From sequence record PZ476263.1: a DNA stretch of 64,000 bases; one strand, given 5' to 3'. The notes under the pieces are model-generated. The model saw only the letters and a list, made by a program, of their open reading frames with translations, was not told where the DNA came from and did no database searches. Made by a program: the position numbers and the translations under genes. This document shows, piece after piece, positions 18,110-23,341 of the stretch. How positions within the stretch are numbered: the stretch's first letter is position 1; each line of letters starts with the position of its first letter. The DNA comes from a phage.

Positions 18110-18327
18110 TGACAACTCAATCTTTAAAGTACACTTTGACACTGGACATCGACTACACAAACCCTCAGCTTGCTGAAATGGTTAAAGAGAAGATGGAAAA
18201 AACAGGTATGACTGTTGAACAGATCAAGACGAATGTTGAAAAGGAAATTTTTACAGGTTTTAACGAGCTGATCGAAAGTGACCTTAAAAACATGCCAGGT
18301 TTTTCTTTCAATGTCGAACGAGGATGA
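18109..18327 (+). CDS. small acidic early protein (paralog of previous gene)
   Basis: 72 aa; ATGA overlap with upstream gene. Confidence 0.4.
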   Translation: MTTQSLKYTLTLDIDYTNPQLAEMVKEKMEKTGMTVEQIKTNVEKEIFTGFNELIESDLKNMPGFSFNVERG

Positions 18328-18440
18328 TTAGAGATGGAAGGCCAGATCTTTTACGAATATGAAGGTTGTGACGAATACGACGGCTTCATTACATGGGGGG
18401 CGGGTTAATGGGAGAAGAAAATTGGGACGTTTAGAAAAAA

Positions 18441-18653
18441 TTGAAGATTGGTTTTACGGCGGGATCTCTGGATGCTTTGAAGATGAACACCCAGACTTCT
18501 AATTATTTTCCTCTGGAAGATAATCCTCGTAATCATGAGTGTAAAGATTACGATTGCCTATGTTATTGCTGCGGTCATCGATTTGCAGGGCCAAAGAGAA
18601 GCATAATGTGTAATCTTTGTCTTAACAAGAAGAAACCTGTTGACAATAGCTGA
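18441..18653 (+). CDS. Cys-rich small protein
   Basis: ECKDYDCLCYCCGH...CNLC. Confidence 0.35.
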   Translation: MKIGFTAGSLDALKMNTQTSNYFPLEDNPRNHECKDYDCLCYCCGHRFAGPKRSIMCNLCLNKKKPVDNS

Positions 18654-18964
18654 TTAAATATGTAAGATTATTTTGTTGCCTGAGAGATTAGTCATCTTGA
18701 AGGCTGGGTGGGCAAATATAAGTTGGAACCATTATACCACCGACGCGATTTACGCTTTTGGTTGACTGTGACTAAATGGGATGCCCAGTCCATCCTTCTT
18801 TAAAACGGGGAGCCGTCGAAGATTGTCTGATTAGTGATTTACGGATCACTATAGTTTTACTACCACGACAATCTTTTACGGTGTACCCCTTGTCATGATG
18901 ACGAGGTTTAAGGTTATCCTGTCGTTAAATATCCAAAACCTGTTACCACCCACAAGAGAATTTA

Positions 18965-19047
18965 GCGCGGGTGTATCTCAACGGTCTTCTAAACCGTCGT
19001 TAATCGAGTAATTGGAGTATGAAGGTTCGAGTCCTTCCTCCCGCGCT
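18965..19047 (+). tRNA. tRNA-like element, atypical (canonical anticodon arm with UCU and T-arm, but no canonical D-arm or encoded CCA)
   Basis: acceptor GCGCGGG/CCCGCGC; ACGGU-CUUCUAA-ACCGU anticodon hairpin; GAAGG-TTCGAGT-CCTTC T-arm. Confidence 0.35.
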
Positions 19048-19064
19048 AAGTTCTTTTAAATGCA

Positions 19065-19140
19065 GGCCCTTTAGCTCAGTGGTTAGAGCAGGCGACTCAT
19101 AATCGCTTGGTCGCTGGTTCAAGTCCGGCAAGGGCCACCA
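19065..19140 (+). tRNA. tRNA with CAT anticodon; anticodon stem and acceptor resemble enterobacterial tRNA-Ile2 (lysidine) rather than elongator Met
   Basis: GGCCCTT acceptor, GCTC/GAGC D-stem, GGCGA-CTCATAA-TCGCT anticodon arm, TTCAAGT T-loop, encoded CCA. Confidence 0.8.
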
Positions 19141-19157
19141 CTCAATAGTTTATTTAC

Positions 19158-19249
19158 AAGATCATTCAGTAATTAAGCGAATGCCGGAAGCAGAACCGGA
19201 TCAACAAATGCGTACGGGTGTCATCGCCACCTAGCAACTGAATGATCTT
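19158..19249 (+). other. long stem-loop RNA element (13-bp perfect inverted repeat flanking 66 nt), followed by U-run; possible terminator or small RNA
   Basis: AAGATCATTCAGT (19158-19170) and ACTGAATGATCTT (19237-19249); internal CCGG-aagcagaa-CCGG hairpin. Confidence 0.45.
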
Positions 19250-19332
19250 TTAAATTCTCTTAACCTCATAAAATCCTTGACATAATAAGAAATTCCTGAT
19301 AACATCTCTATATCGACTTAATTGAGGTGCTT

Positions 19333-19707
19333 ATGCCTAAAGCTGAAATCGTTACTAGAAAACGGGGTCGGCCTACTACAGAGGAAAGTATCGCTATCAA
19401 CACCGAGAAGGCGATTCTTCATGCTCGTTCAGAGTTTGCAAGACTTACTCCTCAGGCGATTAAGACTCTGGAAGGTCTACTCACTTCCGGTACAGAGAAA
19501 GTTAAAGAAACTACTGCGAAGTATATTCTTGAACAGGCTGAAAAAGCTAACAATCTGTACACGATGGAAGATAATGAGGAAGATTTAGCGGGAGGTTCAA
19601 CTTCTGCGGATTCTGATACTCATAAAGGCCCTTCTGATGTATTTAAGGATGCAATTCCTCTTACTACTCAAATCAGAGAGTATAAAATTGCAGAAGGTGA
19701 AAACTAA
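19333..19707 (+). CDS. hypothetical protein with N-terminal basic KRGRPT segment
   Basis: 124 aa from ATG at 19333. Confidence 0.4.
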   Translation: MPKAEIVTRKRGRPTTEESIAINTEKAILHARSEFARLTPQAIKTLEGLLTSGTEKVKETTAKYILEQAEKANNLYTMEDNEEDLAGGSTSADSDTHKGPSDVFKDAIPLTTQIREYKIAEGEN

Positions 19708-19946: not shown

Positions 19947-20028
19947 GGGGACGTGGCAGAGCGGTCGAATGCGCCTGACTGTAAATCAGGTATCCCACAC
20001 GGTGGTTCGAATCCATCCGGCCCCACCA
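19947..20028 (+). tRNA. tRNA-Tyr (GTA)
   Basis: CCTGA-CTGTAAA-TCAGG anticodon arm, GGTGG-TTCGAAT-CCATC T-arm, acceptor CGGCCCC-A-CCA; overall like enterobacterial tRNA-Tyr. Confidence 0.75.
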
Positions 20029-20282
20029 AATTAAGAAGCAGGGTCGCTACCTGCAAGTCGTCGGACTGAGATTCCCTGAATAAGACCCGACTTTAAGGCG
20101 TACAAATGTTCGGTTTAAAGTCCCTTATCTCACAGTCGAAACGGCGCATCCTATTCAGCCGTGATGTGATGTAATCACTGACCTCTTTGAAGGATCATGG
20201 CATCCTATACAAAAAAAAAACCTGAATAATTTAGGTTTTAATGCCTGGGGGTTCGTAGCCCTATTACTAAGAGGACTTAACT

Positions 20283-20492
20283 ATGTTTACTATTAAAATT
20301 ATTGATATCGATGGAAATGAGACGGGTGTTTCAACAAGGCACTACAGATGGTACTCAAAAATGAATATTTTTGATGTGGAGGGTGGAGAATCTGTTTCTG
20401 TACCACCAAAAAGTCGTGCTTATGTAATGAATGACAAAGGAATAACCATCGGTAGATACACAAATACAGCGGATCAACGCGTTCTTAATTAA
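20283..20492 (+). CDS. hypothetical protein
   Basis: 69 aa ORF between tRNAs. Confidence 0.35.
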   Translation: MFTIKIIDIDGNETGVSTRHYRWYSKMNIFDVEGGESVSVPPKSRAYVMNDKGITIGRYTNTADQRVLN

Positions 20493-20493
20493 A

Positions 20494-20568
<75 letters not shown>

Positions 20569-20667
20569 AACACATATCCATCTGACGCGTTTATGGGGTT
20601 GACCTGATCAATCTTCTCCTAATTTCGTGTGAAGACATCATGATTGTTGGGATGGATAAACTTATTT

Positions 20668-20742
20668 TGGGGATTAGCCAAGCGGTAAGGCATCGGATTT
20701 TGATTCCGACATTCACTGGTTCGAGTCCAGTATCCCCAGCCA
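20668..20742 (+). tRNA. tRNA-Gln (TTG)
   Basis: TGGGGAT...AAGCGGTAAGG...CGGATTTTGATTCCG...GGTTCGAGTCC...CCCCAGCCA; very close to E. coli tRNA-Gln. Confidence 0.85.
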
Positions 20743-20747
20743 ATTAA

Positions 20748-20824
20748 CGGTGTGTAGCGCAGCTTGGTAGCGCATCTGGTTTGGGGCCAGAGGGCCGTTG
20801 GTTCGAATCCAACTACACCGACCA
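20748..20824 (+). tRNA. tRNA-Pro (TGG)
   Basis: CGGTGTG TAGCGCAGCTTGGTAGCGCA TCTGG-TTTGGGG-CCAGA ... GGTTCGAATCC ... CACCGACCA; very close to E. coli tRNA-Pro. Confidence 0.85.
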
Positions 20825-22960: not shown

Positions 22961-23014
22961 TGGAATTTACATTTATAGGTGTGGACGAAGGCACTCAGTT
23001 TGAGTGGGAGCAGT
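22961..23014 (+). CDS. terL: terminase large subunit, exon 2 (54-nt micro-exon encoding Walker B-like FTFIGVDEGTQFEWEQ)
   Basis: in-frame segment between two intron cores; hydrophobic stretch + DE typical of terminase Walker B. Confidence 0.5.
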
Positions 23015-23341
23015 TAATCTAGCTGCCTCGTACAGTAATGTACGATGAGAAATTCTTGTGAATTGCTGGAAAATCCTTAGAGCTTGTAAAACTACAACAT
23101 GACCTGCAAAGGTGAGTGTGAATGTTAAAAATTTACAAGATTGGACGATCAGCCTCCAAGCCTCTTTACGAGAGGAAGGTTCAACGACTAGCCGAAAGGC
23201 GTAGATCATAAGCAAATGATGATCGAAGTGCAAGACCCCTACCTTATTGGTAGGGTGAAGATATAGTCTGATCTGCATGGTAACATGCAGCAGTGCTTGA
23301 GTGCACGGCAACGAACTTGCGATCCGTTGCGAACATAACAG
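23015..23341 (+). mobile_element. group I intron 2 (about 327 nt, ORF-less)
   Basis: IGS-like GCTGC pairing with exon GCAGU; R-like GTTCAACGACTAG 23179-23191; S AAGATATAGTC 23258-23268; P9 CTGCATG-GTAA-CATGCAG; 3' end ...GAACATAACAG. Confidence 0.55.

Follow-up and report, generated by a model that had tools for sequence, protein, structure and literature searches.

A two-module structured RNA element in the tRNA operon leader of an rV5-like coliphage is homologous to part of the rIII-30.9 spacer of T-even phages

Virulent coliphages are the source of several described kinds of short structured RNA. The RNase III sites of phage T7 are bulged hairpins at several gene junctions, which could set the ends of RNAs and shield their 3′ termini, and maturation of the T4 tRNA precursor likewise involves RNase III. 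The PeSLs of T4-type genomes, reportedly described by Arbiol et al. in 2010, are said to be multi-copy and to consist of an early promoter and a stem-loop. T4 also encodes the stable RNAs C and D, which are structured, non-tRNA products co-transcribed with tRNA genes and are not represented in Rfam; their role is still described as unknown (PMC3014915; PMC9697503). According to a 2010 review, functional characterisation was lacking for any riboswitch or trans-acting small RNA of T4, and RNAs C and D were without a role (PMC3014915).

Here we report a two-module RNA element, composed of a nested hairpin (module A) and a smaller hairpin with a candidate pseudoknot (module B), in a 64,000-nucleotide stretch of phage DNA (record PZ476263.1; hereafter the window), where it lies between a predicted promoter and tRNA genes (Table 1). 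Like T4 rnaC and rnaD, the pair is phage-encoded, non-tRNA and structured, and its operon context is compatible with co-transcription with tRNA genes. Unlike them it has no sequence similarity to rnaC or rnaD (a blastn search at word size 7 of both genes against the window leader and the T4 rIII-30.9 spacer gave only chance matches, E ≥ 0.14), the T4 copy of A and B lies outside the tRNA cluster, and the T4 rIII-30.9 spacer is not reported to yield any stable RNA species. Module A resembles phage RNase III hairpins such as T7 R1.1 in being bulged, about 20 bp long and situated at the borders of transcription or gene units in a virulent coliphage, but differs in its conserved apical hairpin, long conserved junctions, 4-bp lower stem and occurrence once per genome. 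With PeSLs the pair shares the character of short non-coding T4-type modules with a stem-loop and modular shuffling; module A is, however, larger, and is a single-copy, covarying multi-helix structure. We rejected assignment to the PeSL cassettes, given one covariance-model match in 64 kb, one place per phage record and no promoter match within A or B.

Table 1. Coordinates of the two RNA modules and neighbouring features in the window
Feature	Position	Strand	Description	Basis
Predicted sigma-70-type promoter	18640-18668	+	TTGACA, 17-nt spacer, TAAGAT	10/12 consensus matches
Module A (nested hairpin)	18807-18889	+		Fold, covariation, covariance model, T4 identity
P1 of module A	18807-18810 / 18886-18889		GGGG/CCCC, 4 bp	
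Internal loop above P1	18811-18812 / 18882-18885		AG vs UGUA (2x4)	
P2/P3 of module A	18813-18827 / 18867-18881		CCGTCGAAGATTGTC / GACAATCTTTTACGG, 15 stacked positions; C.U mismatch 18817/18877, G.U pair 18818/18876	
5′ junction strand of module A	18828-18832		UGAUU	
P4 of module A	18833-18839 / 18844-18850		AGTGATT/GATCACT, 7 bp; UACG tetraloop (UNCG-like)	
3′ junction of module A	18851-18866		16 nt; starts with conserved UAUAGUUUUA	
Linker A-B	18890-18898	+	UUGUCAUGA; T4 equivalent CUUGAAUGUGAAUGA	Alignment of spacer variants
Module B	18899-18941	+	Hairpin S1 and candidate pseudoknot S2	Alignment
S1 of module B	18899-18906 / 18918-18924		Bulged stem UGACG(A)GG/CCUGUCG	
Loop of module B	18907-18917		11 nt, conserved	
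Tail of module B	18925-18941		A-rich, conserved, GUUAAAUAUCCAAAACC	
Candidate pseudoknot S2	18911-18915 / 18937-18941		Loop AGGUU / tail AACCU	
Non-canonical tRNA-like gene	18967-19045	+		RF00005 35.8 bits (gathering 29)
tRNA-Met (CAU)	19065-19140	+	Last canonical gene of the unit	ARAGORN; RF00005 70.9 bits
~90-nt stretch	19158-19249	+	Closed by 13-bp inverted repeat	Fold z = -3.86
Second tRNA group	19947-20824	+	Tyr, Gly, Gln, Pro; after 126-aa ORF	
Group I catalytic intron	22986-23290	+	Downstream of the tRNA cluster by a few kb	RF00028 78.7 bits, full-length model

A preliminary description of this DNA had proposed the nested hairpin that we call module A, and a direct reading of the window confirmed its coordinates and its pairing, with one mismatch and one G-U pair. 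The inner AGTGAT hairpin and the suggested extension of the stem by GGGG and CCCC also hold, and RNAfold returns the same structure, alike as MFE and as centroid. The predicted energy of -34.7 kcal/mol compares with -19.1 ± 3.2 kcal/mol for 200 dinucleotide-preserving shuffles (z = -4.88, RNAfold), none of which was as stable. P1 and P2/P3 together stack 19 positions in the window and 17 in T4, interrupted by the internal loop; the flanks of P1 add no further base pairs. RNAfold additionally draws a UAGU/ACUA hairpin (18852-18862) that is not kept in T-even copies. In the whole 64-kb window the covariance model of module A has a single match, of 101 bits. When the 295-nt leader is folded as a whole (z = -3.5), its MFE structure pairs CUGGGUGGG (18704-18712) with CCACCCA (18946-18953), forming one large domain that encloses A and B; this leader-closing pairing is not essential, since the relatives A73 and W70 lack the 3′ partner.

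The comparison of homologous copies is what identifies module A as an RNA under selection for its fold. In an alignment of 20 distinct copies (4 rV5-type and 16 T-even, the whole covering five genera among the T-even phages), standard pairs fill 98.9% of 440 cells, and compensatory changes on both sides affect 7 of the 22 pairs, in 22 cells that correspond to about 8 independent events in few lineages, T-even copies being mostly more than 95% alike. The covariation score of 0.227 was attained by none of 500 shuffles and compares with 0.03-0.10 in controls with the 3′ partners displaced by 1-3 columns, in which 30-63% of cells are paired and 0-1 pairs are compensatory. Such changes are found along the length of the structure: P1 changes from GAGG/CCUC to GGGG/CCCC, the pair 18815/18879 alternates between G-C, A-U and G.U, a C-G pair at the P2/P3 boundary becomes U-A, and P4 is altered at three positions. 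Relative to the T-even copies, those of the rV5 type carry an extra GA in the 5′ strand and an extra UC in the 3′ strand, which lengthens the helix by 2 bp. None of the 20 copies shows any change in the AG/UGUA internal loop, the C.U mismatch, the G.U pair next to it or UGAUUA, and for the variable junction base in ACCNC no covarying tertiary partner was seen. With 42 G.U cells in the alignment, 98.9% of cells are paired when the + strand is read and 90.5% when the - strand is read, which favours the + strand. Compensatory pairing above controls, on one strand, is the generic signature of a functional structured RNA, and module A displays it. The idea of a small structured RNA put forward in the preliminary description is therefore well supported, by compensatory pairing in two phage families, by the + strand and by the position between promoter and tRNAs; the conservation of pairing in relatives, which it had named as a check, was found together with compensatory changes.

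The same description had stated that the region holds no ORF. Mechanical ORFs of 25-40 aa do in fact overlap module A, among them a 40-aa ATG ORF at 18776-18898, and homologous copies are annotated as small hypothetical proteins in the GenBank records of UPEC06, T2 and KK4; what stands is that no reading frame is kept, because window and T4 differ by 2+2-nt indels on the two helix strands. Together with a 5-nt insertion in IME341-type copies and with substitutions that are pairwise compensatory, these comparative data exclude a coding role for module A. We also dropped a 6-codon mini-ORF in P4 (AUG/GUG AUU ... UAG), which IME341-type copies lack. A hairpin that arose by chance would have to be reconciled with the shuffling result above and with about 770 homologous copies, and we hold either account, small protein gene or chance hairpin, to be wrong almost certainly.

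The window phage falls within a small rV5-like E. coli clade of the Vequintavirinae (A7_1, A5-4, A73, W70, UPEC06, LTH01), whereas rV5 proper has only tRNA-Met in common with this stretch and carries no A/B element. Positions 18801-18941 of the window are 81.9% identical over 138 nt to T4 (AF158101, 130615-130753), a homology that the preliminary description had not noticed, as it had not noticed module B or the non-canonical tRNA-like gene. Matches to the same interval occur in 775 records, of which ~770 (771) are T-even, and only six Vequintavirinae records hold both modules. In every T-even genome examined (T4, T2, RB51, RB69, SP18, IME08, PhAPEC2, KK4, SH-2, AV111, 308Ecol101PP and CF-SP2) the matching block is found in the rIII-30.9 spacer and has the orientation of these two genes; in T4 this position is about 60 kb away from the tRNA cluster. 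At least 80% of the T4-type spacer is carried by 646 of the 771 T-even records. The flanks of the A and B block are unrelated between T-even and rV5-like phages, and the structure of both modules is retained in spite of about 18% divergence between the families.

Distant blastn searches of 5,426 complete E. coli genomes and the PLSDB plasmids returned no homologue of A and B, so that the block is not host-derived. Scans of metagenomes and genomes with 16-mers and 17-mers yielded ~150 loci, among which blastn left no true homologue and one 23-nt match to the query only; scans of IMG/VR gave a few dozen useful loci, and the comparative set is that of sequenced phages. Module B is found across the genera of the Tevenvirinae and is, by this distribution, native to them. 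Module A is confined to the T-even phages of the E. coli group and the one rV5-like clade, and a covariance model detected it in none of the Klebsiella-, Erwinia- or Serratia-type loci. The donor of the block was most probably a T4-type phage and the recipient the ancestor of the Vequintavirinae clade, a direction that we infer from the Tevenvirinae-wide occurrence of B and from the presence of both modules in only six Vequintavirinae records.

For module B we aligned 18 distinct copies, including those of T4-like phages of Klebsiella, Enterobacter, Serratia, Erwinia and Pectobacterium. S1 is paired in 92.9% of cells on the + strand against 72.2% on the - strand, and two of its columns are compensatory, in 9 and 7 of the 18 sequences. 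The proposed second helix, S2, is paired in 73% of cells in an alignment where a 1-nt insertion puts two rows out of register; its core is formed by GGUU of the loop and AACC of the tail, and the flanking pair is U-A in 5 sequences, A-U in 4 (including A18911-U18941 of the window) and unpaired in 9. We regard the pseudoknot as a moderately supported candidate. In its general layout, a short hairpin whose loop pairs with an A-rich tail within ~43 nt, module B resembles the preQ1-I aptamers and the T4 gene 32 leader pseudoknot, but it differs from small H-type pseudoknots in matching no Rfam riboswitch, in a tail about twice as long and in having no fixed distance to a start codon or terminator. 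A specific assignment to preQ1-I was rejected, as there was no match and the tail is too long. Module B is deleted in the rV5-like relatives A73 and W70, and the linker ahead of it marks the position of optional inserts of ~50 or ~150 nt in T-even phages.

Comparison of the rIII-30.9 spacers reveals a mosaic built from these modules and two inserts, here called I1 (~50 nt) and I2 (~150 nt). The T4 spacer consists of A and B; RB69 and T2 have A, I1 and B, and SP18 and slur03 have A, I2 and B. A metagenomic contig (L006) holds I1 and B without A, A is cut down to its basal hairpin directly after rIII in SH-2 and CF-SP2, and in KK4 a deletion between two AGTTTTA repeats has disrupted it. In KPV15 the order is a hairpin with a UGUACG loop, B, another hairpin and I2, Cronus has I2 upstream of B, and the rV5-like phages A73 and W70 have retained A only and lost B. 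Judged from these arrangements, the modules behave as self-contained units that are gained, lost and moved independently. The T-even spacers have no promoter of their own, and their modules are for that reason presumed to be part of the rIII-30.9 transcript.

Several further elements of these spacers deserve mention in their own right. I2 is a non-coding element of ~135 nt (for example in Shigella phage SP18, locus L024 at ~1090-1250, and in L183-L186) that is present in 404 T4-like phage records, keeps 80% identity down to Erwinia phage Cronus and is absent from T4; 16 of its 46 predicted pairs are compensatory in an alignment of five sequences only, its closing stem is formed by non-homologous, covarying flanks, and Rfam searches of a T-even spacer with I2 gave no match. 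I1 is a hairpin of ~50 nt (RB69, locus L174 at ~490-545; T2; L006) in which CAGA/UCUG covaries to CAGC/GCUG and whose loop resembles that of module B, both judged by eye. Inspection by eye also showed a 5-bp hairpin with an invariant UGUACG loop and stems CCAUG/CAUGG, CUCUG/CAGAG and CCGUG/CAUGG (L183, L184 and L003). Two conserved hairpins, D and E, lie upstream of 30.9 in T-even phages (T4 locus L021, ~1645-1710): D, CCCCUUGAGGG, covaries in other genera, and E is terminator-like, with GCAGG/CCUGC followed by AUUUUCAUUU. GUUCCCC together with this hairpin is faintly like the E. coli type I-E CRISPR repeat, presumably by coincidence.

The order of B followed by D and E in T-even phages, with E just before 30.9, raises the question of whether the element is a co-transcriptional regulator, either a put-like antiterminator or a ligand- or protein-sensing attenuator, that controls read-through into 30.9 in T-even phages or into the tRNA genes in the window. 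The general resemblance of B to small pseudoknot aptamers points the same way. However, the window copy has neither D nor E nor a nearby terminator-like site, about 190 nt and other modules intervene between B and D/E in KPV15 and Q7622, and no riboswitch family matches A or B even at E ≤ 10; we consider such a regulator improbable.

The patchy presence of the modules, their shuffling and their transfer between unrelated phage families could also be read as the behaviour of a DNA-level or selfish element, for example a miniature cassette for mobility or recombination, or a sequence targeted or carried by a homing endonuclease, with the palindrome incidental. Homing endonucleases are plentiful in T-even genomes, and segB lies in the T4 tRNA cluster. 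Against this, the element is present in a single copy per genome, its borders show no terminal repeats or target duplications by eye, its orientation always follows local transcription, and the G.U strand asymmetry and compensatory changes indicate selection on the + strand fold. We judge this explanation slightly more improbable still than a regulator.

In the window the element is embedded in a compact unit. The predicted promoter, both hexamers of which are identical in all four relatives examined, would start transcription at ~18675, and the next promoter in a consensus scan is at 19277-19305; between the two there are only mechanical ORFs of at most 43 aa and no credible gene. The unit comprises a leader of ~130 nt, A, B, the tRNA-like gene, tRNA-Met and the ~90-nt inverted-repeat stretch. 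ARAGORN does not call the tRNA-like gene, in which acceptor stem, T arm and anticodon-type arm (loop CUUCUAA; UCU, Arg-like) are present, the D arm is missing and the variable region is 23 nt long. It is identical in four relatives and has homologues at 80-95% identity in 266 phage records from several families, among them those of FelixO1-like, phi92-like, Klebsiella rV5-like and jumbo phages; a few of the homologues are annotated as “tRNA-OTHER”. In A5-4, LTH01, UPEC06 and A73 a clear homologue of T4 rnaD (species 2 RNA) directly follows tRNA-Met, in the place that the ~90-nt stretch takes in the window, and non-tRNA stable RNAs of the T-even type therefore reside in the same unit as A and B. 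Taken together, A and B sit in an operon that has no credible protein gene and in which small RNAs exchanged horizontally accumulate. Further along the window are the second tRNA group, whose order differs in LTH01 (Tyr, Pro, Gly, Gln), and a group I intron.

Searches for known RNA classes and signals were negative. Positions 18800-18945 match none of the 4227 models of Rfam 15, whether gathering thresholds or E ≤ 10 and lax filters are applied, and the only overlap, with Hrs1 on the minus strand at 14.6 bits, is a chance one; the Rfam search that the preliminary description had called for thus yielded no family. Its remark that the region contains no canonical tRNA is correct, given that none of the five tRNAs called by ARAGORN lies within 18800-18945 and that RF00005 matches begin only at 18967. 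No intrinsic terminator was found in 18300-19400, P1 being followed by UUGUCAUGA and no U run, and T4 early, middle or late promoters, DnaA boxes and IHF boxes had no convincing match within A or B. Three structural motifs were compared by eye and rejected: a hammerhead core, because the sequence is CUGAUUA rather than CUGAUGA, lacks GAAA and has no Rfam match; domain V of group II introns, which has GAGCCGU...ACGG in common with module A but a different architecture, with no match to RF00029; and a K-turn or loop E for AG/UGUA, whose strand pattern does not fit.

The reading that we prefer, with a probability of roughly 0.4, takes A and B to be self-contained structured RNAs that are matured from the tRNA precursor and act via a specific partner. 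The cassette would act as a + strand RNA, independently of neighbouring genes, and would have landed in the leader of an operon without a credible protein gene. The transcription, excision, stability and any partner or effect that we infer for the pair would then run as follows. The predicted promoter would transcribe A and B with the tRNA-like gene and tRNA-Met; host tRNA-maturation nucleases would cut the precursor, RNase P and RNase E at the tRNAs and RNase III or E possibly near the base of A; and A and B would persist as compact, nuclease-resistant small RNAs, like the T4 stable RNAs C and D. The internal loop, the junctions and the loop-tail pseudoknot would offer a specific binding surface, most likely to a host or phage protein, and a protein partner is likewise suspected for T4 RNAs C and D. 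Several observations speak against a stable RNA: A is dispensable, as it is missing, truncated or broken in SH-2, KK4, CF-SP2 and L006, B is deleted in A73 and W70, and there is the lack of similarity to rnaC and rnaD.

The main rival is a purely cis-acting processing or stability signal, namely an RNase III-type site or an exonuclease barrier, which would separate or stabilise the 3′ end of rIII mRNA in T-even phages and the 5′ leader of the tRNA precursor in the window. It corresponds in essence to the second proposal of the preliminary description, a processing signal for the tRNA precursor. A role specific to tRNAs is disfavoured by the ~770 T-even genomes, in which the element lies between two protein genes and at a distance from the tRNA cluster. 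A cis-acting role would fit the promoterless T-even spacers equally well. The 19 positions of P1 and P2/P3 with their internal loop resemble the bulged RNase III sites of T7 and are compatible with them in length (4 bp in P1 and 15 positions in P2/P3, with the 2x4 loop between), although the lower stem is short; SH-2 and CF-SP2 retain only the basal hairpin, directly after rIII; and A is placed between transcription units or genes in both contexts. The region upstream of T4 tRNA-Gln, which we take to be an RNase III site, has no resemblance to A by eye. On the other hand, P4 and the junction strands, dispensable for a nuclease site, covary and equal the base in conservation, P1 has only 4 bp and is not extended by its flanks, the tRNA operon needs no such site, as rV5 proper lacks the element, and B, which travels with A, is no long helix. 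The invariant nucleotides of the junctions and internal loop suggest that A may be more than a nuclease site, and we regard the purely cis-acting signal as possible, though unlikely.

A variant of the preferred reading goes further and is, in our estimate, doubtful to a greater degree than the cis-acting signal: in T4 and its relatives the rIII-30.9 spacer might hold an array of trans-acting RNA genes (A, B, I2 and others) that bind and neutralise or hijack a host factor of the E. coli group, such as a regulator that binds RNA or a defence protein that senses or cleaves it. If true, this would explain the capture of a ready-made A and B by the unrelated rV5-like lineage and the insertion of the block into its operon of tRNAs and stable RNAs.

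Phage structured RNAs near tRNAs are a known kind of element. The family described here, its presence in T4, its modular mosaic and its homology across phage families appear to be new: the element is undescribed in the literature on the rIII-30.9 spacer, on T4 small RNAs, on T4 TSS and termination maps and in phage RNA-motif catalogues, a survey that stops short of the ~10,000 viral candidate RNAs published in 2023 (PMC10690425). In the literature after 2010 we found nothing that alters the picture of that year for the rIII-30.9 spacer. If A and B serve only RNA processing, their definition is still useful for the annotation of ~770 genomes, where the region carries no annotation or is entered as a hypothetical protein. 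The rIII-30.9 spacer is not filler but a mosaic of covarying, self-closed RNA modules. A and B are small, deletable targets in T4, the best genetic system available, and the natural variants without A, B or I2 constitute a natural experiment; the element is also tied to the old problem of what the stable RNAs of phages do.
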